Assembly (NCBI GenBank): GCA_038042445.1
Contig: JBBTED010000067.1
Coordinates: forward strand, 15,309-79,308
Direction of reading: 5' to 3'
DNA: 64,000 bases
Source of the DNA: Candidatus Firestoneibacteriota bacterium
Lineage (GTDB): Bacteria; Oederibacteriota; D2-FULL-39-29; JBBTED01
Numbering within the stretch: position 1 is the first letter of the stretch; every line of letters starts with the position of its first letter. The notes under the pieces are model-generated. The model had not been told where the DNA came from. It did not search any database and worked only from the letters and a program-made list of their open reading frames with translations. A program made the position numbers and the translations under genes. Positions 5,705 through 34,346 of this stretch are shown here, piece by piece.

Positions 5705-5752
5705 AATGTCATTCCCGCATGTATTAATAGGTCAGGCATCTTGCCTGACAAA
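5704..5752. repeat. Composite repeat (GTCATTCCCGC half + ATAGGTCAGGCATCTTGCCTGAC hairpin)
   Basis: Near copy at 32465-32516; hairpin part also at 29372. Confidence 0.75.
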
Positions 5753-5766
5753 CAACTATAAAATCA

Positions 5767-6618
5767 ATGACAATAAAAGATGCTATTACTTTTGGAACAA
5801 AGGTTTTAGAATCTATTAATATAGAAAATGCCAGATTTGAATCAGAAATAATTTTAGCTCATATTCTAAATATAAAACGGTATAACTTATATTTAAATTT
5901 TGCACAAGAACTTTCAAAACTCCAATCAAAAAATTATTCTTCTTATATAAATAAACGTAAAAAGCATATTCCACTTCAATATTTACTTAAATCTCAGGAA
6001 TTTATGGATGTGAAATTGTATATTGATAAAGGAGTTCTTATACCACGGCCAGAAACAGAGATTTTAGTAGAAAAATTTATAGAACTTGTTAAGAATAAAT
6101 CAAAAAAAATAAAAATTTTAGATATAGGAACAGGTAGTGGAAATATTGCAATTATGTTAGCGTTGAACTTAAACTGTGTTGTGTATGCAGCAGATATTTC
6201 TGTTGATGCTTTGAAAATAGCTAAATATAATGCAAAACAATATAAAGTTAGCGATAAAATTAAGTTTATACAAGCAGATATTTTGAATTTATTACCAACA
6301 TTTTGTGATTTTGACGCTGTTATTTCAAATCCTCCATACATAAAATCAGATGATATTGATAAATTGTCTGATGAGGTTTCAAAATACGAACCAAGAATTG
6401 CTTTAGATGGTGGTAAAGATGGATTATTATTTTATAAAAGTATTTTAAGTAAAATAAAAAAAATACTTAAGCCAAATGGTATTATTGCATTTGAAATAGG
6501 AATGGGACAAAAAAAACATCTTTTGCAAATATTAAATCAATTAGGCAATTTTACGGATATAAAGTTTATAAAAGATTATCAGAGCATAGACCGTGTAGTA
6601 TTTGCAAGGATGATTTGA
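5767..6618 (+). CDS. prmC: Release factor glutamine N5-methyltransferase
   Basis: LIPRPETE, DIGTGSG, SNPPY; follows prfA. Confidence 0.96.
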   Translation: MTIKDAITFGTKVLESINIENARFESEIILAHILNIKRYNLYLNFAQELSKLQSKNYSSYINKRKKHIPLQYLLKSQEFMDVKLYIDKGVLIPRPETEILVEKFIELVKNKSKKIKILDIGTGSGNIAIMLALNLNCVVYAADISVDALKIAKYNAKQYKVSDKIKFIQADILNLLPTFCDFDAVISNPPYIKSDDIDKLSDEVSKYEPRIALDGGKDGLLFYKSILSKIKKILKPNGIIAFEIGMGQKKHLLQILNQLGNFTDIKFIKDYQSIDRVVFARMI

Positions 6619-6626
6619 ATTGTATC

Positions 6627-6655
6627 TTGACAAAATCTTTTGGTTTTTATATCAT
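6627..6655 (+). promoter_or_regulatory. Promoter of the toxin-antitoxin pair
   Basis: TTGACA-17 nt-TATCAT. Confidence 0.6.
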
Positions 6656-6674
6656 TATAATAGGGGTGATATAT

Positions 6675-6872
6675 ATGTCGTCAAGTACACTTTCATTATT
6701 AGATGTTGAACGAGCAATCAAAAAATTTGAACCGGAAAAGCAAAGAAAATTACTTGTAAAACTTCCTTCACTTTTAAAAATAAAAGTAGAAAATTTAGAG
6801 CTTTTAAAACTTGCAGAAGAATCTTTTGAATTTTGGAAAAATCCCGAAGATAAAATCTATGACACTCTTTAA
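6675..6872 (+). CDS. Putative antitoxin
   Basis: 65 aa, RBS GGGGTGA, C-terminal AEESFEFWxNPEDxIYD, overlaps toxin gene. Confidence 0.7.
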   Translation: MSSSTLSLLDVERAIKKFEPEKQRKLLVKLPSLLKIKVENLELLKLAEESFEFWKNPEDKIYDTL

Positions 6873-7206
6873 TAGCGGGGATGTTGTATTAATAGGTTTT
6901 CCATTTACTGATTTGTCAGGTTCAAAGCAAAGGCCTGGTGTAATAATTTCATCAAAATTATATAATGAAAAAGGAATAGATGTTATTATTGCTGCTATTA
7001 CTTCACAGATTCAGGACAAAATAGAAAATGATGAATATTGTCTTACAGAAAAAGAGCAAAAGATTGCAGGATTACCAAAAAAGTCTATTATAAAAGTTGG
7101 CAAGATAATAACTATTGATCAACGATTAATTAGAAAGAAGCTGGGATATTTAACATCAGAAACATTAGCAAATATTAGAAATATCCTACTAAAAATTCAT
7201 ATATAA
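6859..7206 (+). CDS. mazF: PemK/MazF family toxin
   Basis: GDVVLIGFPFTD..GSKQRPGVIIS, AITS, GLPKKS motifs. Confidence 0.88.
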   Translation: MTLFNSGDVVLIGFPFTDLSGSKQRPGVIISSKLYNEKGIDVIIAAITSQIQDKIENDEYCLTEKEQKIAGLPKKSIIKVGKIITIDQRLIRKKLGYLTSETLANIRNILLKIHI

Positions 7207-7246
7207 AATAACGTAATAGACTTAGCTGTAACAATCATTTCTGTCA

Positions 7247-7597
7247 TCAATATTTGGATTTTTTCTTGAATACTTGTGAAAGAATATTAAAAGCCACTTT
7301 TTTATCTTCTACACTTTTTGCTCTGATGATATTGCTGATTTTATTTATATATGGGTCTACTTTGTAAATTACTACTGGCTTGTGAAATGCAAATAAATTA
7401 CTTAAAGAAATAGTCAGTGCTTCACAAATTCTTACCAGTGTTTCTATAGATGGAACATTTTTGCCTCTTTCAATCTGGGACAAATAACTCCAGTCTCTTT
7501 GTGTTTTCTCTGCAAGCTGTTCTAATGTCATACCCCTTTTATTTCTTTCGTTTCTGATGATTTTACCAATATATTTATAGATTTCAGTTGTTTCCAT
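7247..7597 (-). CDS. XRE-family HTH transcriptional regulator
   Basis: GMTLEQLAE...YLSQIERG..PSIETL; RBS AAGGAG. Confidence 0.9.
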   Translation of the reverse strand: METTEIYKYIGKIIRNERNKRGMTLEQLAEKTQRDWSYLSQIERGKNVPSIETLVRICEALTISLSNLFAFHKPVVIYKVDPYINKISNIIRAKSVEDKKVAFNILSQVFKKKSKY

Positions 7598-7679
7598 TGT
7601 TTCTCCTTTGGATTTTCAATATACCGTTAATACGACCAAAAGTGTATAATCTATAAGCACACCATTAGCAAAATACACA

Positions 7680-7708
7680 TTGACTATATACCCAAAATAT
7701 GGCATACT
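7680..7708 (+). promoter_or_regulatory. Promoter divergent from the first XRE gene
   Basis: TTGACT-17 nt-CATACT. Confidence 0.45.
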
Positions 7709-7772
7709 ATAATATAGAAAGATAAAGTTCAATTGTAACGAAATAGGTTATTGGTTCTATGTAAGGTTTTAT

Positions 7773-7862
7773 GTAGGGCAAGGCTTTAGCCTTGCGGATG
7801 CAGGCGGATGCAAACTTTGCTTAAACACGTGTCATTCCCGCGTGTAATAAGCGGGAATCCAG
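7773..7862. repeat. GTAG-type REP (7773-7796) plus GTCATTCCCGC-type palindrome (7831-7862)
   Basis: GTAGGGCAAGGCTTTAGCCTTGCG; GTCATTCCCGC...GCGGGAATCCAG. Confidence 0.8.
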
Positions 7863-7936
7863 TGTCTATTGTTGTATTACAAGTGAAACTGGGTTTAATG
7901 GTGGCTACTAAAAATGAAAGAAAATATGCAGAAATT

Positions 7937-8269
7937 TTATGTGAAAATTATTTTTGCAATTTTTATTAGTATGTCAATTTGTTTTGATGTTCTATTTTTG
8001 ATAACATTGAAAAGCTCTCTGTGTTTTCTATCTTTACTTTTCCATTTGCTTTCTTCAACGAACAAGTCAACAAGTGAAACATTTAAAGCATCTGCAATTT
8101 TCTGTAAAGTCTCCAAGGAGGGACCTTTTGCACCTCTTTCAATGAGGCCAATATAACTGTTATGCAAATTACTTTTTTCAGAAAGCTTTTCTTGTGTCAA
8201 ATTTTGTTCAGTTCTCAAGCATTTTATTCTATTCCCAAGCAATTTATAAAGCTCATTAAATTCGTTCAT
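7937..8269 (-). CDS. XRE-family HTH transcriptional regulator
   Basis: LTQEKLSE...YIGLIERG..PSLETL. Confidence 0.9.
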   Translation of the reverse strand: MNEFNELYKLLGNRIKCLRTEQNLTQEKLSEKSNLHNSYIGLIERGAKGPSLETLQKIADALNVSLVDLFVEESKWKSKDRKHRELFNVIKNRTSKQIDILIKIAKIIFT

Positions 8270-8376
8270 TTAGAGAATAAGTCTACATCAAAACCCACTA
8301 AAAGTGAAGTAACCCACAGTATTATTTTTATTGACTGTAGGTATTGTTTTATGTAATTATATTTATGGTAACACTG

Positions 8377-8399
8377 GTAGCCGCAGGCTTTAGCCTGCG
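8377..8399 (+). repeat. GTAG-type REP
   Basis: GTAGCCGCAGGCTTTAGCCTGCG; copies at 13535 (reverse), 33596, 43199. Confidence 0.85.
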
Positions 8400-8429
8400 T
8401 ATCTAGTAGAAACAAGGATGTGAAAATTT

Positions 8430-8777
8430 ATGAACTTGAGGCAAGGTGAAATTAAACAAATTGAAAGTGATATTAATCTCCAAAAAAGTAACGGTTGGAG
8501 TTCATTAGCGAGTTTTATGTATGCAGCAAGTAAATATCTGAATCGTATTGGTATGCAGATTAATAAGGATAATTTATATGACTTAAATATTGCTTGCCAT
8601 AGACAGTTAGGAATAACACAATATGCTAAAAATTCTATAATGCCATCAGATTATGCTTTTCCTAAATATGGTTTAGGAAAAGGTAAAACAGGCAAGAACA
8701 CAAAAAAATACCCAAAATTTTTGGAGAAAATTGATGGCAAAAAAGGTAAGAATTTTGAACTTGACTATTCCCTATAG
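8430..8777 (+). CDS. Hypothetical protein, probably 3'-truncated by a repeat element
   Basis: RBS AAGGA; stop codon lies inside the hairpin at 8770-8789. Confidence 0.5.
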   Translation: MNLRQGEIKQIESDINLQKSNGWSSLASFMYAASKYLNRIGMQINKDNLYDLNIACHRQLGITQYAKNSIMPSDYAFPKYGLGKGKTGKNTKKYPKFLEKIDGKKGKNFELDYSL

Positions 8778-8954
8778 CTTGCTACAGGGTTACAATATTT
8801 TGTCATGCCCGAATGTAGTAATCGGGCATCCAGAGTCTTGTTTTATCAATGTTTTAAAGACACTGGATTCCCGATAGAAACATTCGGGAATGACGGTATT
8901 ACTTAAGTATTTTTTAGTTTTTGGATACCCCGTAGCTTGCTACGGGGAGGTTCA
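8756..8954. mobile_element. Non-autonomous composite element: paired GCTTGC-loop hairpins enclosing a 93-bp palindromic doublet
   Basis: CCCTATAGCTTGCTACAGGG (8770) and CCCCGTAGCTTGCTACGGGG (8928); inner unit 8802-8894 has a reverse copy at 47332. Confidence 0.6.
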
Positions 8955-9054
8955 TTTTATATGATAATAAAACAAAATGTTATTTTAAAATTCGGGGTAA
9001 GTTCAGTGTCCCACGAATTATAAATGTAAAGATGCAACATTTGAAGCAAGTGAT

Positions 9055-9693
9055 ATGGCAGAACAATTAAAAAGTGAAATAGGAAAAGGTTTTGAAGATG
9101 TATTTATGAAAAAAAGTCTAAAAATTTTTGGGTTTATTCTTGGTGGCATTGTAGGTATTATATTTACCAAACTTTTTTTATTGAAGTCCTATGAAGATGA
9201 AAAAAAGAATGAGAAATTGACAGAGAAAGAAGAAGAAAAAAAGTTACATCAATTAGATGATTACTATGATGATTATATTCGAAGAAGAGATGAATTTAAT
9301 AAAATTAGATCAGATACTATGGATTCGGTTGATAAAATAATATTGACTTTATCAACTGGTACATTAGTTCTATCAATTACATTTTTAGATAAAATTGGAA
9401 AACCTATCAATTATTCTTTTATTTTAGTATGTTCATGGTGTTTTTTAATGGTTTCTCTCTTACTAAATATTCTTAGTTTTATATTTGCAAGAATAAATAT
9501 AGAAAACAAAATTCAGGATTTGGATGATAAATACGAAGAACGTAAAGAAGATAAGAAATATTTTGTTGAAAAAAACTTTATTTGGGAAAAGTGGACTGAT
9601 TTTTGTAATTATTTTGCTTTATTTTCATTTCTTATAGGTATTATTAGTTTTTTTATTTATGCATTAATAATTATATTTGATAATTGTAAATAG
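9055..9693 (+). CDS. Hypothetical membrane protein (about 4 hydrophobic segments)
   Basis: ORF with DKIILTLSTGTLVLSITF and further TM segments; start uncertain. Confidence 0.6.
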   Translation: MAEQLKSEIGKGFEDVFMKKSLKIFGFILGGIVGIIFTKLFLLKSYEDEKKNEKLTEKEEEKKLHQLDDYYDDYIRRRDEFNKIRSDTMDSVDKIILTLSTGTLVLSITFLDKIGKPINYSFILVCSWCFLMVSLLLNILSFIFARINIENKIQDLDDKYEERKEDKKYFVEKNFIWEKWTDFCNYFALFSFLIGIISFFIYALIIIFDNCK

Positions 9694-9707
9694 AATGGAG
9701 GTGCATT

Positions 9708-9764
9708 ATGGCCAGTAAAAAAACAGGTGGGAAAACACCATCTAAACCACCTAAAAAGAAATAA
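9708..9764 (+). CDS. Putative 18-aa basic micropeptide MASKKTGGKTPSKPPKKK
   Basis: Strong RBS GGAGGTG directly upstream of ATG. Confidence 0.5.
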   Translation: MASKKTGGKTPSKPPKKK

Positions 9765-9801
9765 AATTTTTATATGTTTATGAATTAGGAGATATAAAAT
9801 T

Positions 9802-10038
9802 ATGGAAATAGAAATTAGTGATAATTTTGGAGTAAATGGTGGACTGCATTATGGAACACCTGTAAATGTTGTAAGAGAACTTAAAGCAATATGGAATATT
9901 ACAGCACGAGTATCTGAAGAGATAAGGAATAAAAGTGTTGATGATTGGGCAAAAGATATAAGGGAACATATGCCGTTTTTAAATTGTTGGTATGAAAAAT
10001 TATTAAAAGAGAAAAACATCCTTTTTCAAATGAATTAA
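9802..10038 (+). CDS. Hypothetical protein
   Basis: RBS AGGAG; 78 aa. Confidence 0.5.
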   Translation: MEIEISDNFGVNGGLHYGTPVNVVRELKAIWNITARVSEEIRNKSVDDWAKDIREHMPFLNCWYEKLLKEKNILFQMN

Positions 10039-10199
10039 TGACTATTTTTGCACTTGCTTATGGCGAGCCAAACTATCAATGGGTAAGTATTCAGAATATT
10101 ATATGGGATGATGGTTCCACTACTACAAGGGATGATTTACTTAGAATGCAATTGGATGAAGAAAAATTCAATAATTTACAGAGATTAGGTTTAATATAG
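10038..10199 (+). CDS. Hypothetical 53-aa protein (or frameshifted C-terminus of previous ORF)
   Basis: TAATG overlap; MTIFALAYGEPNYQWVSIQ...LGLI. Confidence 0.4.
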   Translation: MTIFALAYGEPNYQWVSIQNIIWDDGSTTTRDDLLRMQLDEEKFNNLQRLGLI

Positions 10200-10225
10200 T
10201 TTTGAAATTTAAAAAGAATAAAGAA

Positions 10226-10789
10226 ATGGATAATTTAAAAGATATTTATATTAGTTATTTCAATCAGATGAGAGATGGTGAATCAAATATTTTCAAATTT
10301 CTCACTACACTTTTTACTGCTATTGGAGGATTTTATATTGTTGTTAAAAATAATGTTGTTGAAAATAATTTAGATTGGTTATTGTTTTCAGCAATTGGAT
10401 CTACTATTGTACTTATATGGGGAATTCTTTATGTTTTATCAATAGGTTATACGCATAGATATTTGCAGGTAATAATGTGGTATTATGAAAATAAATTAAA
10501 ATTACCCAATTTCAAATCTTGGGATCCAAAAAAATTTAAAAAGTTGAAAGTATGCCAAAGCTTATTATTAGAACCTACTCCGGGAATTTATAAAATCCAT
10601 CTTATAGGATTTATTATGGGAATTATGTTAGTTTGGTATTGGTACGGATTTTTAAAAAATAACAACCATATTGGTTGTGTGATTATACTATTTCTTATTG
10701 TGTGGTTGCTTACTGCTTGTTTAAATTATTACTATATGAACAAACTAAAAAAAATAATTGAAAAAGGAATTAATAATGATAAAACTTAA
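10226..10789 (+). CDS. Hypothetical 4-TM membrane protein
   Basis: Four hydrophobic segments; overlaps next gene. Confidence 0.6.
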   Translation: MDNLKDIYISYFNQMRDGESNIFKFLTTLFTAIGGFYIVVKNNVVENNLDWLLFSAIGSTIVLIWGILYVLSIGYTHRYLQVIMWYYENKLKLPNFKSWDPKKFKKLKVCQSLLLEPTPGIYKIHLIGFIMGIMLVWYWYGFLKNNNHIGCVIILFLIVWLLTACLNYYYMNKLKKIIEKGINNDKT

Positions 10790-13481
10790 TAAATTTTTTA
10801 AAATTATTTTTATAGTAATAGTTTATAGTATAATTAACGATTTTACATATACTTATGCTGTAACTTATACATTAGACAGCACAGGAAATGTTGGAGGGTA
10901 TAACTCTATAGCCATAGACAGTAATAACAAAGTTCATATTGGTTATTATGATGTTACAAATGGAGATTTAAAATACGCAACGAATATATCTGGTTCATGG
11001 GTAACATCTACTTTGGATAGTTCAGGAACTGTTGGATGGTGGAGCTCTATAGCCATAGACAGTAATAACAAAGTTCATATTGGTTATTATGATGCTACAA
11101 ATGGAGATTTAAAATACGCAACGAATATATCTGGTTCTTGGGTAACATCTACTTTGGATAGTTCAGGAACTGTTGGATGGTATAACTCTATAGCCATAGA
11201 CAGTAATAACAAAGTTCATATTAGTTATATGGATTATACAAATGCAGATTTAAAATACGCAACAAATACATCTGGTTCTTGGGTATATACAACATTAGAT
11301 GATATTGGAAGTAGTTTAGATGGTTCTCAAAACCGTACTTCAATCACAATAGATAGTAATAATAAAGTCCATATTAGTTATGCTATGGGTTTTGGTGGTA
11401 ATTTAAAATATGCAACAAATACATCAGGTAGTTGGGTGTGTATATCATTAGGTATAGGATTTACTTCTTCAATAGCCATAGACAATAATAATAAAGTTTA
11501 TATAAGTTATAATGGGACAGATTTAAGATATGGTACAAACGCATCTGGTAGTTGGGTGACATCAACATTAGATAGTGCGTTCTCAAATTCTTTCATAGCG
11601 ATAGATAACAATAACAAGATTCATATAAGTTGTTTTGATAGTACAAATGCAGATTTAAAATATGTTACAAATGCTGGTAATACAGCACCAACATTATCAT
11701 GGACAGGCGAGGCAAATTATACTTCAGATGGAATAAATCCAGAAATAGGAAACACAAGTTCAACATTTATATACAGGATTAAATATACCGATACTGATAA
11801 TGATGCACCGGCGAGTGGGTATCCAAAGGTGCATATTAAGAAAGCAGGAGTTGAAATAAGCGGTAGTCCATTTACAATGAGTTATGTAAGTGGAAGTTAT
11901 AGCACAGGAGCAATTTATACATATTCTAAAACATTAAGTTCTTTGGGAACTGACTACACATATTATTTTGAAGCGCAGGATGTGTGGAATGAAGTAGCAA
12001 CAGGCACGCCAACAATCGCTGTTGATTCTCCTGATGTCAATAATGCTCCTGCATTATCTTGGACCGGTGAGACAAATTATGTATCTGACGGGTTAGATCC
12101 GCATACAGGAAATACAGCAATAACATTTACATACAGAGTGAAGTATACGGATGCTGATGCTTTAGCAAGTGGATATCCAAAAGTTCATATTAAAAAAGCA
12201 GGAAGTGAAATATCTGGTAGTCCATTCACAATGACTTATGTAAGTGGAACATATTCAGGCGGAGCGATTTACACTTATTCTAAAATACTTTCTACCGTTG
12301 GAATTGACTATACATATTATTTTGAGGCACAGGATGTATATAACGAAGTAGCAACTGGAATACCAACAACATCAGTAGATGCTCCTGATGTTTCTGCTAT
12401 TCCTCTTATTTCTCCAAATACAGCACCCATTTTTTCCTGGACAGGTGAAACAAATTATACGGCTAATGGGATTTATCCTACTTTAGGAAATGCGAGTACT
12501 ACTTTTGTTTTTAGGGTGAAATATACGGATGCAGATAATGATGCTCCTGCATCAGGATATCCTAAATTGTATATTAAAAAAGGTGGTGTAGAAATTTCTG
12601 GTAGTCCGTTTGCTATGGTGACAGTAGATAGTAGTTTGTATTCAGCAGGTCCAATTTATACTTATTCTACGGTTTTAACTAAATCAGGTGCTGATTATAC
12701 TTATTATTTTGAGGCGAAAGATGTATTAAATGGTCTTGCAACAGGAATACCTACAAATCCTTTTGATGCACCTGATGTTAATGTAATTCAGGCAAATCAA
12801 GATACCAATATAGTAAGTGAAGACGGAACCAGTATTGATATTCCAAAGGATACACTAAATCCAGGAGTTGCAATTAACATCACTATTCCTTCTGTTATTC
12901 CTGAAGGAGAAGTCCAAAATGCAGGATATTCAGTTAAGCAGACAAATATAACAAGAGAAATAACTACATCAGATGGGAGTAAAAATTTTAATAAGGAAAT
13001 AAAAATATCTATTCCATTTAAAGATTCTGATGTTGCTGGAATAAATAAACAAAACCTGAAATTATTCTATTATTCTGAAGAAAGGAAAATGTGGATTTTA
13101 ATTCCATCTGCTGTAGTTGATACTAATAAAAATACAATTTCTATATTAGTTACACATTTGACAATTTTTAGGATAATGGCACTTGAGCCAACATCAGCAG
13201 TATTAGTTTTATATAACAATTTGTTTGACCCTGCAAATAATGAAAAATTATATGTTCGTTATGATATTGTGCAAGAAGTAGATGTTACAGTTACTGTGTA
13301 TAGCATCAAGGGGCAAAAGATAAAAGAATTATTTAATGGTAGAAAAACTGCTGGTAGTTACACTGATTTAACCTGGGATGGCAAGAATGAAGATGGAGAG
13401 GTTGTAGCAAGTGGTATTTATGTTGTGTATATTTCTGCAGGGGATTTTAGAGATAAGAAAAAAGTGGTGGTGGTGAAATGA
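10776..13481 (+). CDS. Secreted repeat protein: beta-propeller repeats, three Ig-like repeats, C-terminal FlgD-Ig/T9SS-like sorting domain
   Basis: Signal peptide; 6x SIAIDxNNKVHI..DLKYATN.SGSW; 3x APxLSWTGExNY; WDGKNEDGEVVASGIY...KKKVVVVK tail. Confidence 0.85.
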   Translation: MIKLNKFFKIIFIVIVYSIINDFTYTYAVTYTLDSTGNVGGYNSIAIDSNNKVHIGYYDVTNGDLKYATNISGSWVTSTLDSSGTVGWWSSIAIDSNNKVHIGYYDATNGDLKYATNISGSWVTSTLDSSGTVGWYNSIAIDSNNKVHISYMDYTNADLKYATNTSGSWVYTTLDDIGSSLDGSQNRTSITIDSNNKVHISYAMGFGGNLKYATNTSGSWVCISLGIGFTSSIAIDNNNKVYISYNGTDLRYGTNASGSWVTSTLDSAFSNSFIAIDNNNKIHISCFDSTNADLKYVTNAGNTAPTLSWTGEANYTSDGINPEIGNTSSTFIYRIKYTDTDNDAPASGYPKVHIKKAGVEISGSPFTMSYVSGSYSTGAIYTYSKTLSSLGTDYTYYFEAQDVWNEVATGTPTIAVDSPDVNNAPALSWTGETNYVSDGLDPHTGNTAITFTYRVKYTDADALASGYPKVHIKKAGSEISGSPFTMTYVSGTYSGGAIYTYSKILSTVGIDYTYYFEAQDVYNEVATGIPTTSVDAPDVSAIPLISPNTAPIFSWTGETNYTANGIYPTLGNASTTFVFRVKYTDADNDAPASGYPKLYIKKGGVEISGSPFAMVTVDSSLYSAGPIYTYSTVLTKSGADYTYYFEAKDVLNGLATGIPTNPFDAPDVNVIQANQDTNIVSEDGTSIDIPKDTLNPGVAINITIPSVIPEGEVQNAGYSVKQTNITREITTSDGSKNFNKEIKISIPFKDSDVAGINKQNLKLFYYSEERKMWILIPSAVVDTNKNTISILVTHLTIFRIMALEPTSAVLVLYNNLFDPANNEKLYVRYDIVQEVDVTVTVYSIKGQKIKELFNGRKTAGSYTDLTWDGKNEDGEVVASGIYVVYISAGDFRDKKKVVVVK
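10904..11285 (+). repeat. 141-bp coding tandem repeat (about 2.7 near-identical units)
   Basis: Unit starts CTCTATAGCCATAGACAG at 10904, 11045, 11186. Confidence 0.9.
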
Positions 13482-16447
13482 GAGAAAAATGGATTCCCGC
13501 TTTCGCGGGAATGACAGAATGTAGTGGAAATTCTCGCAGGCTAAAGCCTGCGGCTACAACTACATTGTTTGTAATGATGATTTTTATTTTGCCTGTTTTG
13601 TGTAATGCAGGGGTGGGAACAACTGGGGGTGTGTTTCTTGAGGATTCTGTAGGTGCAAGACCTTATGGTATGGGTTCTGCATTTTCTGCTATTGCTGATG
13701 ATGCAAATAGTATCTATTCAAATCCTGCTGGTTTTCATTATCTTGCCTATCCTGAAATAACAACAATGTATAATAAAGCATTGATGGATACTTCATTAAG
13801 TTATATTGGGTATATTCATCCTTATGAAAATATCGGAACTTTTTCCGGGTCATTTTTATTATTTGATGGTGGAGATATAGAGCTGAATTATTTAGATAGC
13901 ACAAGTGAAAAAGTGAAGGCAGGCCAGGATTGGGCCGTAACTTTAGGATATGGCAGATCTATAGGGAATTCAGAAATATTTTTTGGTGGGGCTAATATAA
14001 AATTGGTACGTAGCACATTGGTAAATAAATATTCTGCAATAGCAATAGCGATGGATGCAGGATTGTTGTATCGCACAATTGATAATAAGCTTTCAATTAG
14101 TTTAGCATTTCAAAATTTAGGTACGAAGTTGAAATATAAAAATATAGGTGATTCTCTTCCTTTTACTTCTAAATTTGGAGTTGCCTATAGAATTTTAGAG
14201 CTTGAAGGACATTCAGTATTACTTGCAGGAGATTTTTCTCTTAATTTTGTAAAGAAAAATATTGGAGTTGAATATTGGGTAATGCAAATGTTCGCATTAA
14301 GACTTGGTGCAAAATTGGGATATAATCCAAATAGCTATACTATGGGTTTCGGGATAAATGTTTTTTCTGATACAAAATTGGATTATGGATATTCTCCAAT
14401 GATAGATGAAACAACGCATAGGATTTCGTTATCATTTAAGTTTGGTTCACAGGATAAAATTACACTTGCTGATAAATACGAAGAAAAAGGAATGTATGCA
14501 CGTGCGCAATATATCCGCAATCCAGATGATTATATGTACGCAAAGGCAAATACAATAAAAGAAAAAGATGGATTTATACCTATTATAACATCAATAGAGC
14601 CAAAGAAAGCAGGTCCGGGAACGGAAATTAAAATATTCGGAGAAAAATTTGGGAAATATAGCAATGTAACAATAGGAGATGTTTTTGCAGAGGTTATAAA
14701 ATCAGAAGAAAAAAGAATAATAGCGAAAGTGCCGAATATAAAAGCTGGAGAATCAGAAGTAGTTGTGCAGACAGACAAAGGGGTTTCACTTTCAAAAACA
14801 TTATCAGTGATGCCATCAAAACCAGCAATGCTTGAAGTTTCAGAAATAACATTTAAAGATGAGAATCAAGATAATATTTTGGGAGCAGAGGAAACCGGAA
14901 ACATAATAATAACAGTTAAAAATCAGAAGGGTGCTGGAGAGTCGTTTGGAGTGAAGGTTAAACCAGTGTGTACTTCAGCAAAGAATGATCTGTTTTTTGA
15001 TAATGAAATAAATATAGGAAATATTGGTTCTGGAGAAGAGAGAAAAGTTGAAATTCCAGTTAAAGCTGGATTAGATTTAACAACAGGCAAAGCGAGTTTT
15101 AAATTGAGTTTTACTGAAGCGAATGAATATAATCCAGATCCAGTGAACATAACATTTGATACACATAAATTAGAGCCGCCTGATATAGAATTAGCGAAAT
15201 TTGAGATAGACGATGGAATGTATCCATACAATCCGGAAAAATTAGCATCAGGAAATAACAATGGAATACTTGAACCCGGAGAACAAGTTGAAATAAACGC
15301 AGTTATTGTAAACAAGGGAACAGGTCCAACAAAGAATGGAGTTGTAAAAGTTATTTGTTCTGATCCTAAAATCAATATTTCAAGTTTAAGTCAGAGTTTA
15401 GAGTTTGATTTAGGTAGTATAGAGCCGGAAAAATGGAAAGAAATAAAGTTTGCGATAGAAGTTAAAAAACAATATAAGGGTGAACAGAATCTGCCTGTAA
15501 AACTACAGTTCAGTGAAGCAAGAAAAATGTTTAACAAGGATTTGGCAATGAACATAGGATTAGGCAGGGTGTATGCAAAAACACAAGATGTTGTTATAAA
15601 AGGAAAATCGTTTGATATTGCTATTCCAACAATTACTTCTTTCGGAGATGATTTAATTAACATACCTGCTTATGCAACAACAGAAAAGAAGAATGCTTAT
15701 GCAGTAGTGGTCGGAATAGAAAAATACAGGGATGTGGTGTCAGCGGAATATGCGGCAAAGGACGCACAGTCAATAAGAGATTATTTAATTAGCGCAATGA
15801 AATTTAAAGAAGAGAATATTAGATTTGCTCTAAACGAAAGAGCAAGCAGGAATGATTTAATCAGATATTTCAATGTGGAGTTAAAGAACAATGTTGAAAA
15901 GGATTCTTTGGTGTTTGTATATTATTCCGGGCATGGTGCCCCGGATGCAACAACAGGCGATACATACATCGTTCCTTATGACGGAGACCCGAATACAATA
16001 AAAGACAGCGGGTATTCGTTAAAGCAGTTGTATGAGGTATTAAGCAAACTACCAACTAATAAAATATTGGTTGTGATAGACGCGTGTTTCAGCGGTGCAG
16101 GCGGAACAAGAACGCTTTTAGCAAAAGGAGCAAGACCATTAGTAGTGAGTAAGGATACAGATACCGGGAATGCGATAGCAATCACAGCAACAGGAGCAGG
16201 ACAAATAAGCGGGACTTATGACGAGAAACAACACGGGTTATTTACATATTATTTTTTGAAAGGTATTCAGGGTGAAGCGGATATAAACAAAGACAAGGAA
16301 ATAATGTTAAGCGAGTTGTATGGATATTTAAAGCCAGAGGTTATAAGGAAAGCAAGAAAAGACAACAGGGACCAGGAACCGCAGATATTGCCATCAGTTA
16401 ATCAGATAGGTGAGTTTGAAAAATTACCATTAGCAATATTAAAATGA
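13478..16447 (+). CDS. PorV/PorQ-like beta-barrel fused to IPT/TIG and Ig-like domains and a C-terminal caspase-family (C14) peptidase
   Basis: GARPYGMGSAF..IADDA.SIY.NPAG; ITSIEPKKAGPGTEIKIFG; AVVVGIEKY, YYSGHG, IDACFSG, HGLFTYYFL. Confidence 0.85.
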   Translation: MREKWIPAFAGMTECSGNSRRLKPAATTTLFVMMIFILPVLCNAGVGTTGGVFLEDSVGARPYGMGSAFSAIADDANSIYSNPAGFHYLAYPEITTMYNKALMDTSLSYIGYIHPYENIGTFSGSFLLFDGGDIELNYLDSTSEKVKAGQDWAVTLGYGRSIGNSEIFFGGANIKLVRSTLVNKYSAIAIAMDAGLLYRTIDNKLSISLAFQNLGTKLKYKNIGDSLPFTSKFGVAYRILELEGHSVLLAGDFSLNFVKKNIGVEYWVMQMFALRLGAKLGYNPNSYTMGFGINVFSDTKLDYGYSPMIDETTHRISLSFKFGSQDKITLADKYEEKGMYARAQYIRNPDDYMYAKANTIKEKDGFIPIITSIEPKKAGPGTEIKIFGEKFGKYSNVTIGDVFAEVIKSEEKRIIAKVPNIKAGESEVVVQTDKGVSLSKTLSVMPSKPAMLEVSEITFKDENQDNILGAEETGNIIITVKNQKGAGESFGVKVKPVCTSAKNDLFFDNEINIGNIGSGEERKVEIPVKAGLDLTTGKASFKLSFTEANEYNPDPVNITFDTHKLEPPDIELAKFEIDDGMYPYNPEKLASGNNNGILEPGEQVEINAVIVNKGTGPTKNGVVKVICSDPKINISSLSQSLEFDLGSIEPEKWKEIKFAIEVKKQYKGEQNLPVKLQFSEARKMFNKDLAMNIGLGRVYAKTQDVVIKGKSFDIAIPTITSFGDDLINIPAYATTEKKNAYAVVVGIEKYRDVVSAEYAAKDAQSIRDYLISAMKFKEENIRFALNERASRNDLIRYFNVELKNNVEKDSLVFVYYSGHGAPDATTGDTYIVPYDGDPNTIKDSGYSLKQLYEVLSKLPTNKILVVIDACFSGAGGTRTLLAKGARPLVVSKDTDTGNAIAITATGAGQISGTYDEKQHGLFTYYFLKGIQGEADINKDKEIMLSELYGYLKPEVIRKARKDNRDQEPQILPSVNQIGEFEKLPLAILK

Positions 16448-17541
16448 GAAATAAAACGGTTTTGTCATTGCGAGTGAAACGAAGTAATCTTGGGATTTAT
16501 CTAGTATTTTTTCTTGTTGTTGTTTTTTGTGGGTGTGCTACGACACCAAAGTCAAAACCGGATTTAAAAGATAAATCCGATAAACTTTTTCAGGAACTTG
16601 GAAAAGAAGAAACTCCGGATATTCAACAGAATAAAGAAATGAAACAGATGGAAAAGGAGTTGGATAAAACGCCCAATAAATCAGACCAAACAGTAGAACA
16701 AGCGTCTCGCTTGTCAGAACAACAGCCATCAATGGTAGGACAGCCGTCTCGGCTGTCAGAAGAAATTTCTTTTGAAGAAACAGGTGAAGGGTTCGCGTCA
16801 AAATACGAACGGAGAATAGAAGCAGAAAAACGTGCAGAGGAGAATGCTTTATCAAAAGCGCTAAAGAAAATAGGCACAGATGTTTTTGACAGTTTCAGCG
16901 ATGCAATGGCTCAATCCGGAAAAACACAGTATCAGTTCGTTGCGAAATGTCTTTATATCGGCACAAGCGGATTAGTGTCTTATGAAAGAACTGGAGAGCC
17001 GATTTTTACAGAAGAGACAAATGGAACAAAGTGCGTTCTTAAAATAAAAGGCACGGTTTATTCAAAAGGTAAGCCAGACCCTTCTTATGGGGTTAAAATA
17101 GATAAGAATTCCGGGATGGATAAACTGATTTATAATTCCGGGGATGAAGTCCAACTAAAATTTTCTGTTACAAAGGATTCACATATAACTATTTTAAATA
17201 TTGATGAGGAAAAGAACGTTTATCTGATTTATCCAAATAAGTTTGTTAAGGGAAATATACTGAAAGCAGGAGAAAGTTTTGAAATACCGGGTAACTTGGG
17301 AATAAAAATGCAGGCAGTATTACAGGAAGGAAAGAGCGAAACAGTTGAATTACTATACATAATCGCAACAAAAACCAATTCGTTGTTTTTATCTGAGGAT
17401 AGCAAAGAGATTCTTTTATCAACAGATTACACATTGTTTTCAATCGGAGAATTTAAAAGGGCTATGGAACGGATTGGAAAACTTAATCGTGATGAGTGGA
17501 CAATGATTGTTTTGCCATATACGATAGTAAAAGGTAAATAG
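16444..17541 (+). CDS. Lipoprotein with C-terminal DUF4384-like domain
   Basis: Lipobox FCGC; Y..GDEVQLKF.V.KDS.I.ILNID....YLIYPN. Confidence 0.75.
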   Translation: MRNKTVLSLRVKRSNLGIYLVFFLVVVFCGCATTPKSKPDLKDKSDKLFQELGKEETPDIQQNKEMKQMEKELDKTPNKSDQTVEQASRLSEQQPSMVGQPSRLSEEISFEETGEGFASKYERRIEAEKRAEENALSKALKKIGTDVFDSFSDAMAQSGKTQYQFVAKCLYIGTSGLVSYERTGEPIFTEETNGTKCVLKIKGTVYSKGKPDPSYGVKIDKNSGMDKLIYNSGDEVQLKFSVTKDSHITILNIDEEKNVYLIYPNKFVKGNILKAGESFEIPGNLGIKMQAVLQEGKSETVELLYIIATKTNSLFLSEDSKEILLSTDYTLFSIGEFKRAMERIGKLNRDEWTMIVLPYTIVKGK

Positions 17542-17553
17542 TTTATAGAATAT

Positions 17554-17641
17554 GTTATGCTGAATTCATTTCAGCATCTGTAGGGGTGGATTTATCCGAC
17601 CAGATATTGTAGTTGTTTTGTAGTTGCCGACTTTGGTTGGC
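17554..17641. repeat. Cluster of three palindromic repeats
   Basis: GTTATGCTGAATTCATTTCAGCATCT; GTAGGGGTGGATTTATCCGACC; GTAGTTGCCGACTTTGGTTGGC. Confidence 0.65.
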
Positions 17642-17657
17642 AAAGGAGGAAAAGAAA

Positions 17658-18215
17658 ATGGGAAAAGGTAATGTAGTCGCTCAATTTATTGAGCATAAGG
17701 TAGTTGCAAAGATTGGTTTGCTGATTGTTTTAGCAGTATTTGTTATAGTTGGTTGTGCATCAATGAAACCAATGTGGGTGGATAAAGGAAGTGCTGCGTT
17801 TGAGAAAGGCAAAGAAAAGGTGTTTTATGGTGTTGGCACAGCGAGTGCTGAAATTAAAGACAAAGCATTAAGAATAGAAACAGCGGATAACAGAGCAAGA
17901 GCGAGTTTACAGAAGATATTTGACACATATACAGCGTATTTAATGAAGGATTATCAGGGACAGGACGGAGTAGTTGTTGAAAGGGCTGTAAAAACATTTG
18001 CTGCTGGGAATTTATCTGGAGTTGAAATAACAGACCATTTTACTGAAAGCGATGGCACAATATATTCTTTAGCGAAACTTGATTTAGAGACATTCAAGCA
18101 GGCAATGGAAATGGCAAAGGAAGTTAGTACTATAGCAAAGGAACATTTGCAAAAGAAAGCAGATGTTATGTTCTCTGAATTAGAAAAAGAAGAAGAAAAA
18201 AGAGGAGCAAAGTAA
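17658..18215 (+). CDS. LPP20-like lipoprotein
   Basis: RBS AGGAGG; lipobox IVGC; KPMWV, FYGVG.A, ADNRARA. Confidence 0.75.
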   Translation: MGKGNVVAQFIEHKVVAKIGLLIVLAVFVIVGCASMKPMWVDKGSAAFEKGKEKVFYGVGTASAEIKDKALRIETADNRARASLQKIFDTYTAYLMKDYQGQDGVVVERAVKTFAAGNLSGVEITDHFTESDGTIYSLAKLDLETFKQAMEMAKEVSTIAKEHLQKKADVMFSELEKEEEKRGAK

Positions 18216-18257
18216 ACAAAAATTTAACTACTGAATATTCCCAAATTCTTAACAAAA

Positions 18258-18285
18258 GTAGGGAACAGGATTATCTGTTCCCTAC
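18258..18285. repeat. GTAG...CTAC palindrome (REP-like, possible terminator)
   Basis: GTAGGGAACAGGATTATCTGTTCCCTAC. Confidence 0.7.
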
Positions 18286-18469
18286 AAACCAAAATGTAAC
18301 AAATCAGTATTCCGTCATTCACTGACCCATTGCAAGGTTGATTTGAATTGTATTTCACTTAAATTTTTTGTAATATGTTTTATAATATATGGTCTGGTGG
18401 AAAAAATATCAACTATAAGGGAAAGAATTATGCTGTGTCTTTAAAACATACAGCATAAGGGAAAAAATT

Positions 18470-19723
18470 ATGGATAAAATAATAATAAAGGGTGGCAGAA
18501 GATTAAAAGGGGTAGTTACAATAAGTGGTTCTAAAAATGCAAGTTTGCCAATAATTGCAGCTAGTCTTTTGGCTAATTCAAATGTAACATTAGAAAATAT
18601 TCCTCAGTTAAGAGATGTTACTACTATGATTAAGGTGATTACTGCATTGGGTGCGAGGGTGGAAATAAAAAGGCAGGTATTAAATATAAATCCTGAAGGG
18701 TTTAAATGTAAGGAAGCTCCATATCAGTTAGTAAGAACAATGAGGGCTTCTATATATGTGATGGGTCCTCTACTTGCAAAATTTGGATATGCAAAGGTAT
18801 CTTTGCCAGGAGGTTGTGTGATTGGAGTAAGGCCTATAAATTTACATCTTAAAGGGTTTGAAAAATTAGGTGCAAAAGTTAAAATTGAGCATGGATATGT
18901 TGAGGCAAAAGCTAAAAAACTTAAAGGTGCTGAAATTGATTTGGATTGTCCAAGTGTTGGTGCTACAGCAAATTTAATGATGGCAGCTACTTTAGCCCAA
19001 GGAAAAACTGTAATAAGAAATGCTGCAAAAGAACCGCATATAGTTGATTTGGGAAATTTTCTAAAAAAAATGGGAGCTAAAATTAAAGGATATGGGACGG
19101 ATTGCATAAGCATAACAGGTGTCCGGGAACTTTCCGGATGTATTCATGAAATAATTCCAGATTACATAGAAGCCGGAACTTTTATTACTTGTGCAGCAAT
19201 AACAAAAGGTAATGTGATTTTAAATAAAGTACCTGTATCTGATTTGGAAACTGTAATATCAAAGTTTAAAGAAGCAGGTGTTAGTATAATAGAAGAGAGT
19301 CCGAATTCCTTACGTATTAAAATGTCAAAAAATATAAAGGCAATAGATATAAATACATCGCCACATCCTGGGTTTCCTACAGATATGCAGGCACAGTGGA
19401 TGGCGGTTATGAGTGTTGCAAATGGCACAAGTGTAATAACAGAAAGTATATGGGAAAATAGGTTTATGCATGTTGCTGAATTAAGAAGAATGGGAGCTGA
19501 TATAACACTTGATGGAAACACTGCTATAATAAAAGGAGTGAAATCTTTAAGTAGTGCGCAAGTTATGGTTTCAGATTTAAGAGCCGGTGCTGCACTTGTA
19601 ATAGCTGGCCTTACAGCAAAAGGAGAAACTGAAATTTCAAGAATCTATCATCTTGATAGAGGTTATGAAAAAATAGAGGAAAAGTTAGTAAGATTAGGTG
19701 CAGATATTAAAAGGATAAAATAA
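18470..19723 (+). CDS. murA: UDP-N-acetylglucosamine 1-carboxyvinyltransferase
   Basis: SGSKNA, LPGGCVIGVRP (active Cys), FPTDMQ, DLRAGA, HLDRGY. Confidence 0.98.
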   Translation: MDKIIIKGGRRLKGVVTISGSKNASLPIIAASLLANSNVTLENIPQLRDVTTMIKVITALGARVEIKRQVLNINPEGFKCKEAPYQLVRTMRASIYVMGPLLAKFGYAKVSLPGGCVIGVRPINLHLKGFEKLGAKVKIEHGYVEAKAKKLKGAEIDLDCPSVGATANLMMAATLAQGKTVIRNAAKEPHIVDLGNFLKKMGAKIKGYGTDCISITGVRELSGCIHEIIPDYIEAGTFITCAAITKGNVILNKVPVSDLETVISKFKEAGVSIIEESPNSLRIKMSKNIKAIDINTSPHPGFPTDMQAQWMAVMSVANGTSVITESIWENRFMHVAELRRMGADITLDGNTAIIKGVKSLSSAQVMVSDLRAGAALVIAGLTAKGETEISRIYHLDRGYEKIEEKLVRLGADIKRIK

Positions 19724-33677: not shown

Positions 33678-33770
33678 GGAGAGGTACCGAAGCGGTCATA
33701 ACGGGCTCGCCTGGAAAGCGATTCGGGAGGGAAACCTTCCACGTGGGTTCGAACCCCACCCTCTCCGCCA
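33678..33770 (+). tRNA. tRNA-Ser(GGA)
   Basis: Acceptor GGAGAGG/CCTCTCC-G-CCA, anticodon loop CTGGAAA, long variable arm, GGTTCGAA T-loop. Confidence 0.95.
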
Positions 33771-33881
33771 AAAAAAATAAATAATAGAGGGGTTCGAAGC
33801 CAACCCGAGTGCCGAGCAAAGCGAGGAATAAACGAGGGTGGCCGGCTTTGAAGGAGCGAACGATAGTGAGCGGATGAAAAG

Positions 33882-33902
33882 GAACCCCACCCTCTCCGCC
33901 AA
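33882..33902 (+). repeat. Exact 21-bp duplicate of the tRNA-Ser 3' end
   Basis: GAACCCCACCCTCTCCGCCAA also at 33751-33771. Confidence 0.92.
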
Positions 33903-33916
33903 GTTTTTACTTATTA

Positions 33917-34346
33917 TGAATATAATAACAATATTACTGGTTTTAATTCCAATAATCACCGCTATAATGAGTTCTTATCTAACTTATTATTTTACAATTA
34001 AATCTAAGAAGGATGAGTCCGTATTAAAATTTAAAGAGGAAAAATACTCTAATTTGCTAATATTTCTTCAAGGTTTTGTCGGTAGAACTATTTCGGGTGA
34101 AACCAAAATAAAATTTTTTGAAGAACAATATAAATCTTGGCTGTATAGTTCTGATGGTGTGGTAAATGCCATAAATCAATTGATACGTTTACTTGTAGAT
34201 GCAAACGTAAAAGGAAAAAACGTTGATCAAGAAGAAGGTAAAAAAATATCGGAAATATTGTTCTTGAAATGCGTAAAGATTTGCTAGGTAAAACAGAATT
34301 AACATTTGAAGATTTTCAATATACTAATGTTAATCCTGATAAGTAG
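33917..34346 (+). pseudogene. Hypothetical protein with N-terminal TM, apparent frameshift in an A7 run
   Basis: -1 frame after 34246 reads IGNIVLEMRKDLLGKTELTFEDFQY...*. Confidence 0.55.

Follow-up and report, generated by a model that had tools for sequence, protein, structure and literature searches.

Elements that exploit the host XerCD system (IMEX) have no integrase of their own and carry short, almost identical sites at either end. Other elements enter at the end of a gene: SGI1 is described as integrating at the 3' end of trmE (PMC8409611). A cis-mobilizable element (CIME) is an element that has lost its integration and transfer genes and has kept intact attL and attR (PMC6323972). 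We analyzed a 64-kb stretch of DNA (the window) in which an 11.7-kb block of accessory genes (segment of 11,728 bp) separates prmC from murA, with rho-rpmE-prfA-prmC on one side and murA on the other (Table 1). As in a genomic island, the block is missing from the prmC-murA junction of distant relatives and has target-derived direct repeats at its flanks. As in a CIME, it retains attL/attR-like repeats, whose att function we infer, and integration and transfer genes are missing.

The repeat, TTGCAAGG(A/T)TGATTTGAATTGTAT, occurs in two copies that are 23/24 identical, with a longest exact common run of 15 nt. Both were found where the original prediction had placed them, one across the prmC stop codon and one before murA. 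The last 17 nt of prmC fall inside the left copy, which takes in the five final codons of the gene (F-A-R-M-I), its TGA stop (6616-6618), and then 7 bases; five codons, a stop, and 7 nt is also the layout expected of elements whose targets are gene 3' ends. The right copy would encode A-R-L-I-stop, but an in-frame TGA (18323-18325) lies just ahead of it, and its similarity to prmC does not extend beyond the 24-mer. In-register identity is 12/34 in the 34 nt upstream of both copies and 19/34 in the 34 nt downstream, the latter no better than in shuffles of matched composition (local alignment P = 0.36), and from these unexceptional flanks we set the length of the repeat at 24 nt. The two copies are the sole matches in the window at up to 3 mismatches; 0.01 matches are expected by chance, and none of 100 shuffles gave two or more. 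With up to 8 mismatches allowed, the next best site has 7, indicating that the window holds no third, degenerate copy. A dispersed repeat, one of the concerns raised with the original prediction, is thus excluded only for the 64 kb that the search covered. Paired inverted recombinase-binding arms were not obvious in the 24-mer when it was read by eye.

We compared the locus with a sample of 80 MurA-anchored loci, 76 of which had more than 1 kb upstream. prmC lies directly upstream of murA in 11 of the 80, with nothing between the genes in any, and in 9 of the 12 informative loci whose MurA is at least 55% identical. The prmC-murA gap is 11,851 nt here versus -14 to +77 nt in the 11 related loci, and it falls to 123 nt after the island interior and one repeat are taken out. 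The prmC-murA adjacency held for most of the nearest loci, but the other three (L006, L015, and L019) have murA without prmC in front, so the adjacency is not universal; locus L002 also shares the rho-rpmE-prfA order. The 11 loci with abutting genes are distant (MurA 53-58% and PrmC 33-42% identity), and the 24-mer is absent from all 80, so they document a synteny break and not an attB. No match was obtained when 12 island proteins (53-aa ORF at 10038-10199 left out) were searched by tblastn against prmC-murA junctions, and no element occupied the prmC-murA site in any of 12 prmC-bearing loci. These comparisons support reading the block as inserted DNA, judged by the prmC-murA junction that related loci conserve.

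The check originally proposed, for an empty site, gave none: distant loci have prmC abutting murA, but none carries the 24-mer. Nor did an excision junction appear in any of the 12 prmC-bearing loci. The nearest other PrmC in a protein database search was only 48% identical, and no close relative was found. The exact PrmC protein is present on 3 public contigs; all 3 also bear island genes, and hence no empty site was seen for this prmC allele.

Table 1. Coordinates of the island, its borders, and the adjacent genes within the window
Feature	Position	Strand	Evidence or remark
prmC (release-factor glutamine methyltransferase)	5767..6618	+	PrmC_N 60.4 bits, plus methyltransferase domains
Left repeat copy (attL-like)	6602..6625	+	Spans prmC stop codon; repeat family D11
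Sigma-70-like site TTGACA-17-TATCAT	6627..6655	+	11/12 consensus match, best within 5500-19000
65-aa ORF, putative antitoxin	6675..6872	+	Role from position only; overlaps mazF start by 14 nt
MazF/PemK-family toxin, 115 aa	6859..7206	+	PemK_toxin 63.7 bits (cutoff 23.1)
XRE-family HTH regulator 1, 116 aa	7247..7597	-	HTH_3 50.5 bits
Host-type dispersed hairpin repeats	7772..8947 (7772-7867, 8377-8399, 8790-8947)		In island
XRE-family HTH regulator 2, 110 aa	7937..8269	-	HTH_3 64.9 bits
Orphan ORF, 115 aa	8430..8777	+	No family match
Orphan membrane protein, 212 aa	9055..9693	+	No family at threshold
Two small orphan ORFs, 78 and 53 aa	9802..10199	+	No family match
Orphan membrane protein, 195 aa	10202..10789	+	No family at threshold
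Repeat-rich surface protein, 907 aa, T9SS type A C-terminal sorting domain	10758..13481	+	TIGR04183
PorV/PorQ barrel + IPT/TIG + Ig-like + caspase (C14) fusion, 989 aa	13478..16447	+	
DUF4384 lipoprotein, 365 aa	16444..17541	+	DUF4384 54.8 bits
LPP20-like lipoprotein, 185 aa	17658..18215	+	ORF opens at 17613; LPP20 E = 0.011, below threshold
Perfect hairpin GTAG...CTAC	18258..18285		11 pairs; between last island gene and right repeat
Right repeat copy (attR-like)	18330..18353	+	Non-coding, 116 nt upstream of murA
murA	18470..19723	+	EPSP_synthase 378 bits; usual direct neighbour of prmC in related loci

The lack of a recombinase, noted in the original prediction, extends across the window: no such domain was found in the 16 island ORFs, in 83 further frames of at least 40 aa, in the 11 flanking ORFs, or in the window's 39 other ORFs. 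Excisionases, relaxases, and oriT-associated proteins were not detected either. The proposal that an integrase might lie next to prmC in other genomes found no counterpart in 12 prmC-bearing loci. The 185-aa LPP20-like protein is not a recombinase; its atlas features agree with those of LPP20 clusters at 0.93, and its structure matches lipoprotein clusters at TM 0.76-0.80. A DDE transposon was rejected on the absence of a transposase domain and of terminal inverted repeats (ends read by eye) and on the 24-nt duplication, since target duplications made by transposases are far shorter. A prophage or phage satellite was rejected because there are no phage structural, packaging, or replication genes. 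PHROG matches in the island were to the MazF-like protein and the XRE regulators, plus weak ones (the caspase fusion to two families of unknown function, 1.4e-5 and 1.5e-4; sub-threshold holin/virion, E ~0.006), and there was no DNA match among 50,697 phage records.

The left arm carries a sigma-70-like site that starts 2 nt inside the island, ahead of the predicted toxin-antitoxin pair; the evidence for it is its match to the consensus, and shuffles give just as many such sites in total. The toxin of that pair is well supported, but the 65-aa ORF taken as its antitoxin matched nothing in Pfam, NCBIfam, PADLOC, or PHROG, antitoxin families included; its exact protein is present on 3 contigs. 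The 115-aa form of MazF is already on record, and its homologues make up 11 clusters at 70-77% identity, one named Elusimicrobia. In the same database MazF relatives reach 77% versus 48% for the best PrmC relative, and by this measure the MazF toxin alone looks recently transferred. The two XRE regulators are as predicted: a 96% identical variant of the first occurs on a 521-bp contig, and the second scores 57 bits against the phage_RstR subfamily, under the cutoff of 80. Orphan genes had also been anticipated, and the lack of family matches bears this out. The 115-aa orphan ORF found only itself among 1.84 billion representative proteins. For the 212-aa membrane protein, the nearest ESM Atlas clusters are unnamed (0.92), and PycTM (0.78) is a lead rather than an assignment; the 195-aa membrane protein shows no similarity to it.

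The right operon, previously described as a secretion-type module, is instead a T9SS-tailed surface protein, a PorV-barrel/caspase fusion, and two lipoproteins. It is not a secretion system, and the translocon and motor genes of a complete type IX system (SprA/Sov, PorK-N) are absent among the window ORFs. The 907-aa protein matches Por_Secre_tail at 24.2 bits (cutoff 23) and FlgD_ig at 35.2 bits (residues 829-905), and holds internal repeats of 47 aa and 118 aa. The 989-aa fusion, whose true start is probably near 13574 and whose residues 5-13 are a translated dispersed repeat, scores 154 bits against PorV_fam NF033709 (cutoff 90), 55.4 bits against Peptidase_C14, and 37.3 bits against TIG. 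When its structural model was compared with the PDB, ranks 1 and 3 were PorV chains (8gl6_F and 6h3i_F; TM-score by target, TMt, 0.55-0.58), with a barrel pLDDT (per-residue confidence) of ~70-77. The motifs SGHG and DACFSG are invariant across 10 sequences, and full-length homologues are 38-54% identical, two of them named Elusimicrobiota and none closer than for core genes. The DUF4384 protein has a signal sequence with a terminal cysteine, seen in the translation.

The best explanation, to which we give about an even chance, is that the island is the remnant of an integrative element that entered site-specifically at the prmC 3' end and later lost its integrase. Integration at this gene end is the best, though unproven, reading: the repeat, the synteny break, the absence of recombinases, and fixation in the sampled assemblies are observed, whereas we infer how recombination took place, that an integrase was once present, and in what order events followed. 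A core of ~24 bp on the element would have recombined with the identical sequence at the prmC 3' end in a reaction of the tyrosine-integrase type, splitting the tight prmC-murA junction. The prmC stop codon would have been rebuilt from the core, giving the left copy, and a second core copy would have been left before murA. The integrase and any excision and transfer genes may have been lost afterwards. The remainder would be a left-end toxin-antitoxin pair, two XRE regulators, orphan genes, and a four-gene outer-membrane operon, now acting as a fixed part of the chromosome of this lineage. This reading draws together the repeat at the borders, the synteny break, the lack of terminal inverted repeats, the foreign signal at the left end, the signs of decay and fixation, and a tRNA-Ser scar described below. 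Against it, no empty site, excision junction, circular form, or integrase beside prmC has been observed, and literature searches turned up no earlier case of prmC/hemK serving as an attachment site.

Within the same window, the terminal 21 nt of tRNA-Ser (33751-33771) recur perfectly 131 nt downstream. This 3'-end duplication indicates that elements targeting gene 3' ends have visited this genome.

The island could alternatively still be mobile, either as a CIME or as an integrative mobilizable element. Its nearly intact attL and attR would then serve an integrase from another part of the genome, or a related incoming element that integrates next to the island. We regard this as rather unlikely. 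The cores have stayed 23/24 identical even though the right copy, which encodes nothing, could have drifted freely, and kept attL and attR without integration and transfer genes suit the CIME definition (PMC6323972). The MazF relatives at 70-77% also show that at least the MazF module moves between genomes. Set against this are the lack of any integrase in the window and of excisionase, relaxase, and oriT-associated protein, and the lack of a known partner element. In addition, the island is fixed in the sampled assemblies: island proteins occur on all three contigs with the prmC allele, and 7 island and 3 backbone proteins are each present on 3 contigs (reaching 82,084 bp; sources include NCBI, ENA, Logan, and MGnify), with allelic variants of MurA, the caspase fusion, and one XRE regulator 96-99% identical. 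Codon usage and GC3 do not differ between 10 island and 37 backbone genes (P = 0.21 for codon-usage fit; P = 0.12 for GC3). Host-type hairpin repeats lie inside the island, including a further pair at 13493-13557, and members of these families are also present in the backbone, at 5708, 33604, 43207, 47332, and 47413. Host-like codon usage and internal host repeats argue for long residence and against an active element. Together with the divergence of the PorV-caspase fusion (54%), these observations weigh against the original suggestion of mobilization in trans; they suggest that the element is fixed and decayed and no longer active.

Insertion may also have taken place without a dedicated recombinase. 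Incoming or rearranged DNA could have recombined illegitimately or through short homology, or genes native to the lineage could have accrued stepwise at a permissive junction. The 24-nt duplication would then be a by-product, retained for preserving the prmC stop and the murA leader. Mobility genes are wholly absent, as this account would have it. Neither codon usage nor GC3 sets the island apart from the backbone, and the tetranucleotide distance of the island (0.18-0.23, a value inflated by internal repeats) is at the top of the backbone range (0.12-0.21). The best homologues of the cargo are named Elusimicrobiota and show core-like divergence, and with the host-like composition this leaves most of the island without a signature of foreign origin. 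The island may moreover be composite, with 26-29% GC in the left arm, including a 26% stretch at 9-11 kb, and 33-39% in the right operon. Illegitimate insertion, however, seldom produces a clean direct repeat of 24 nt that marks both borders exactly; stepwise growth is hard to square with a repeat that brackets both arms and has no third internal copy; and the tRNA-Ser duplication shows that integrase-type scars occur in the window. We regard this account, too, as rather unlikely.

A third possibility is an IMEX that used host XerCD at a chromosomal dif site, the 24-mers being dif-like sites. The missing integrase and the short, near-identical flanking sites are those of such elements, but we consider this highly improbable. 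Across the region GC skew is positive throughout and the cumulative curve climbs monotonically; with no skew inversion, this is not the replication terminus, where dif lies. The 24-mer also overlaps coding sequence and forms no two-arm palindrome around a central spacer (read by eye). Finally, although the window apparently comes from metagenome assemblies and its proteins occur on few contigs, an assembly artefact is an unlikely source of the repeat or the island, and a chance repeat or a chimera at the junctions is scarcely credible, given the shuffles, a common run of 15 nt where assembler k-mers are usually longer, and the recurrence of backbone and island proteins on 3 contigs each from different sources.

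We thus return to the integrative-element remnant and its likeness to known systems. As in MazEF modules, a PemK/MazF toxin has a small overlapping upstream ORF and sits at the island edge, the position of a maintenance module; unlike in those modules, the upstream ORF fits no antitoxin family, and a stabilizing role is putative. The right operon recalls the T9SS pair of PorV and CTD substrate, with a 989-aa PorV/PorQ barrel and a preceding gene that ends in a type A sorting domain. The barrel here, however, is fused to Ig-like and caspase domains, whereas locus L004 has a stand-alone 324-aa PorV after a CTD protein, and no further T9SS gene lies within the window. In Bacteroidota, the PorU sortase processes the CTD tail, and the caspase domain might conceivably act on the sorting tail in a PorU-like manner.

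Like SGI1 and the dusA-specific islands, the prmC island appears to have targeted, duplicated, and restored the terminal part of a conserved housekeeping gene. SGI1 and the dusA-specific islands retain a tyrosine integrase beside att, along with excision and mobilization genes, whereas the prmC island has none. CIMEs are derivatives of integrative conjugative elements (ICEs) that lack the integrase. Known CIME examples lie at the fda gene of Streptococcus thermophilus, whereas the host here belongs to an uncultured diderm lineage and is not a streptococcus. For this island, no ICE or integrative mobilizable element is known as a parent at the same site, and mobilization by accretion would be hypothetical. 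With attL/attR-like direct repeats where a housekeeping gene ends, accessory cargo, and no integration or transfer genes, this integrase-less island nevertheless looks like a CIME and is an ordinary kind of decayed genomic island.

We confirmed that a 24-nt direct repeat lies at the end of prmC and again before murA, as the original prediction had claimed, with the two copies identical at 23 of 24 positions. The sequence, TTGCAAGG(A/T)TGATTTGAATTGTAT, matches the window only twice at up to three mismatches, against 0.01 matches expected by chance, and none of 100 dinucleotide-preserving shuffles contained two or more. When the search was relaxed to eight mismatches, the best further site had seven; a third, degenerate copy is therefore absent from the island and from the window, and the concern that the 24-mer might be a dispersed repeat is answered for these 64 kb, which hold two copies only. 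Outside the repeat, 12 of 34 nt are identical in register upstream and 19 of 34 downstream, the latter not above composition-matched shuffles (P = 0.36). Thus, the duplication is 24 nt long and sits exactly at both borders of the 11,728-bp block. With the aim of identifying the ancestral copy, we aligned the window's own PrmC with 119 homologues (n = 120); the residue at position 282 (left copy, M; right copy, L) is K in 37, L in 36, and M in 9. An Rfam search over 5500-19000 gave no match at the borders and only sub-threshold matches on a hairpin repeat at 8787-8912.

Positions and content of the island, its borders, and other features of the window
Feature	Position	Strand	Description
Left 24-mer	6602-6625	+	five final prmC codons, TGA stop (6616-6618), and 7 bases beyond
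Right 24-mer	18330-18353	+	116 nt 5' of the murA start; preceded by an in-frame stop, otherwise without likeness to prmC
Left arm, 65-aa ORF			no family match; overlaps a MazF/PemK toxin gene (63.7 bits)
Left arm, two XRE regulators		-	
Left arm, five ORFs			no family match; two are membrane proteins
Right arm, four-gene operon: 907-aa repeat protein	10758-13481		C-terminal T9SS type A sorting domain (TIGR04183, 24.2 bits; cutoff 23)
Repeat arrays of the 907-aa protein	10860-12782		six or seven 47-aa repeats (DNA up to 90% identical), then three 118-aa repeats
Right arm, operon: 989-aa fusion	13478-16447		PorV/PorQ barrel (154 bits vs 90), TIG, Ig-like, and caspase (55 bits) domains
Right arm, operon: DUF4384 lipoprotein			
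Right arm, operon: LPP20-like lipoprotein			
murA leader	18403-18472		30-nt tandem duplication with ribosome-binding site and ATG
murA	18470-19723		
Dispersed repeats, group one	5708, 7831, 8801, 8884, 13505, 47332, 47413		backbone intergenic: 5708, 47332, 47413; inside the island: 7831, 8884, 13505
Dispersed repeats, group two	7781, 8385, 13538, 33604, 43207		backbone intergenic: 33604, 43207; inside the island: 7781, 8385, 13538
tRNA-Ser(GGA) and 21-nt repeat	33678-33902		copies at 33751-33771 (final 21 nt of the tRNA) and 33882-33902
Small membrane ORFs and PIN protein	33838-36261		three membrane ORFs and one PIN-domain protein
Anaerobic metabolism genes	52063-63918		multihaem cytochrome c552-like protein, Mrp/complex-I-like membrane module, acetyl-CoA synthase/CO dehydrogenase

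The island interrupts a run of genes that reads GH57 enzyme, outer-membrane protein, rho, rpmE, prfA, and prmC on the left and murA and mpsC on the right. We compared this junction with the best 80 MurA-anchored loci among the matches listed (44-61% identity, none of those listed exceeding 61%), all distant from the window's organism, whose own genome is not among them; 76 have over 1 kb of sequence 5' of murA. In 11 of the 80 (L002, L004, L007, L008, L009, L011, L012, L013, L017, L044, and L064), prmC lies directly 5' of murA; a twelfth prmC-bearing locus, L026, has it on the opposite side. Twelve informative loci have MurA at least 55% identical; the adjacency is present in 9 of them and absent from L006, L015, and L019. 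L002 shares rho-rpmE-prfA as well. Between the prmC stop and the start of murA, the 11 loci have -14 to +77 nt vs 11,851 nt in the window, where deleting one repeat copy and the interior would bring it to 123 nt. Window proteins were searched by tblastn against the 80 loci; 12 island proteins served as queries, the 53-aa ORF not among them, and none occurs at the 11 junctions. Weak matches to domains of the two large island proteins are confined to L004 and L015, where they lie elsewhere. The block therefore splits two genes whose close spacing is conserved. In place of the empty site predicted for relatives, 11 of the 80 distant loci have a tight prmC-murA junction, and the 24-mer is in none of the 80; these loci show a synteny break rather than an attB. 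The best named relatives of several window proteins are Elusimicrobiota, and the nearest MurA loci are variously labelled.

The island is also present in every sampled assembly. Exact PrmC forms a one-member cluster in a collection of 5.8 billion clusters, where the next best is 48% identical, and occurs on three contigs of public assembled sequences, the longest 82,084 bp. Exact look-up of ten proteins gave three contigs each for PrfA, PrmC, and MurA and likewise for the 65-aa ORF, both XRE regulators, the 115-aa and 212-aa orphans, the DUF4384 protein, and the caspase fusion. These equal counts for backbone and island indicate no empty allele. Retention of the island genes with no empty allele, named in advance as counting against the prediction, was thus seen in all three contigs, but these are strain-level variants (allelic proteins 1-4% divergent) and cannot decide the matter. 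MurA on the 82-kb contig differs from that in the window at 7 residues, all within a 35-residue stretch (147-181), which suggests a short recombination tract between strains. The copies of the murA leader duplication are 80% identical and 40 nt apart, and the leader also has a hairpin, ATGCTGTGTC...ACAGCAT; together, these may form a short leader ORF or an attenuator.

The claim that the island has no recombinase held under a wider search. No recombinase family was found by Pfam and NCBIfam in the 16 island ORFs, and six-frame Pfam at E up to 0.05 detected neither recombinase nor remnant in 83 further stop-to-stop frames of at least 40 aa (6650-18441). None was found in 11 flanking ORFs or in the 39 other ORFs of the window. 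An integrase hidden beside the right repeat was considered and rejected, the nearest gene there being a lipoprotein. PADLOC and PHROGs returned mostly generic HTH and MazF matches, plus one PADLOC caspase model; two PHROGs families of unknown function match the caspase fusion, and holin and virion matches were sub-threshold. Blastn of the left arm (6600-10800) had zero matches in phages and in plasmids. The two membrane proteins, of 212 and 195 aa, show no similarity to each other and were rejected as paralogues, and look-alikes of the 212-aa orphan in the ESM Atlas are unnamed clusters only (PycTM 0.78, below use).

The right arm encodes a surface protein and its putative processing enzyme. 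The AlphaFold model of the 989-aa fusion, built from a 10-sequence alignment, has a mean pLDDT (per-residue confidence) of 69, with domains at 70-88. Its best PDB matches include, at ranks 1 and 3, the T9SS translocon PorV chains 8gl6_F and 6h3i_F (TM-score by target, 0.55-0.58); generic Ig-domain chains make up the rest of the top matches. All 10 aligned sequences retain the His and Cys motifs of the caspase domain unchanged. PorV with a C-terminal sorting domain (CTD) is a textbook pair whose structure is solved (8gl6). From gene order and the established roles of PorV and the PorU sortase, we infer that the barrel would accept the tail of the 907-aa protein and the caspase domain would trim it. 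The same barrel/TIG/caspase fusion occurs in nine full-length clusters (P0134-P0142; 38-54% identity), two named Elusimicrobiota, and L004 has a CTD-bearing protein followed by a stand-alone 324-aa PorV-like gene; thus, a gene pair that recurs is here present in fused form. A literature search for a PorV-plus-caspase architecture returned no relevant paper among the matches listed. Repeat arrays such as those of the 907-aa protein readily collapse in assembly and vary in length. The recorded start of the fusion (13478-13574) reads MREKWIPAFAGMT..., the translation of two dispersed repeats; because the annotation reads through these, the protein in the public record is likely about 32 residues too long, and translation probably begins at the MMIFILPVLCNA signal sequence near 13574.

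The composition of the island is close to that of its host. Island and backbone are not separated by synonymous-codon fit (P = 0.21) or GC3 (P = 0.12; 10 vs 37 genes), and in tetranucleotide distance the island falls at the upper end of the backbone values. Two intergenic hairpin-repeat families are dispersed through both; one has the stem GTCATTCCCGC...GCGGGAATCC, and the other has GTAG followed by a AGGCTTTAGCCT hairpin. We take them to resemble bacterial REP (repetitive extragenic palindromic) elements, and no RAYT-type transposase is in the window. The PorV-caspase fusion, at 38-54%, is no closer to its homologues than core proteins are to theirs. We read the host-like codons and tetranucleotides, the internal host repeats, and the divergence of the fusion as signs that the island has been resident for long or came from a closely related donor. 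The left end looks unlike the rest. For MazF, 11 clusters of homologues are 70-77% identical (one carries the name Elusimicrobia), well beyond PrmC (48% in the same database) and also above Rho (69% in L002), and a search of 1.84 billion representatives gave no homologue of the 115-aa ORF. A composite island is therefore possible, in which a maintenance module may have been exchanged more recently.

Elsewhere in the window, the final 21 nt of tRNA-Ser(GGA) are repeated perfectly 131 nt downstream, the two copies being separated by 110 nt. The arrangement resembles the att scar of an almost fully deleted integrative element, independent of the prmC repeat; small membrane ORFs and a PIN-domain protein lie downstream. 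The backbone genes toward the right end of the window indicate an anaerobe with a Wood-Ljungdahl-type pathway.

Recombination by a tyrosine integrase between an element's core and a gene's 3' end usually leaves a clean repeat that rebuilds the end of the conserved gene. Applied here, the core would have recombined with the 3' end of prmC, duplicating 24 nt and rebuilding the end of the gene. The clean repeat, the absence of terminal inverted repeats and transposase from the island, and the tRNA-Ser scar make it likely that the island arose by site-specific integration at prmC. The chances that it is now a fixed remnant of such an event are about even. That it is still recombined in trans is unlikely, and insertion without a dedicated recombinase is similarly improbable. 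More doubtful still is the fullest reading. In it, a family of integrative elements in an uncultured diderm lineage (possibly Elusimicrobiota-related) would use the 3' end of prmC as a true, hitherto undescribed attachment site. The island would be an integrase-less passenger that remains competent, its nearly perfect 24-bp sites being recombined in trans, and would carry a T9SS-tailed surface protein in a single portable cassette with a PorV-barrel/caspase processing enzyme of its own. A Xer/dif route is disfavored because GC skew does not invert in this region. A chance repeat or a chimeric assembly is likewise disfavored, the former by the shuffles and the latter by the recurrence of backbone and island proteins on three contigs each.

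Site-specific integration at prmC, if true, would add this gene to the few protein-coding genes known to offer a landing site for integrative elements at the 3' end; our search of the open-access literature found no report of prmC/hemK as an attachment site, attB, or integrase target. It would also mean that such elements operate, and decay to islands lacking an integrase, in an uncultured, deep-branching lineage of which hardly any relatives have been sampled. The prmC-murA junction is a spot to seek accessory genes in new genomes of the group, and the PorV-barrel/caspase fusion with its adjacent CTD protein is a compact outer-membrane module of biochemical interest. Integrase-less islands with att scars are already well known, and no new mechanism is opened here. 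In PMC6323972, cis-mobilizable elements (CIMEs) are defined as keeping attL and attR after losing integration and transfer genes; the prmC island compares with them in having kept att-like scars while being integrase-less.
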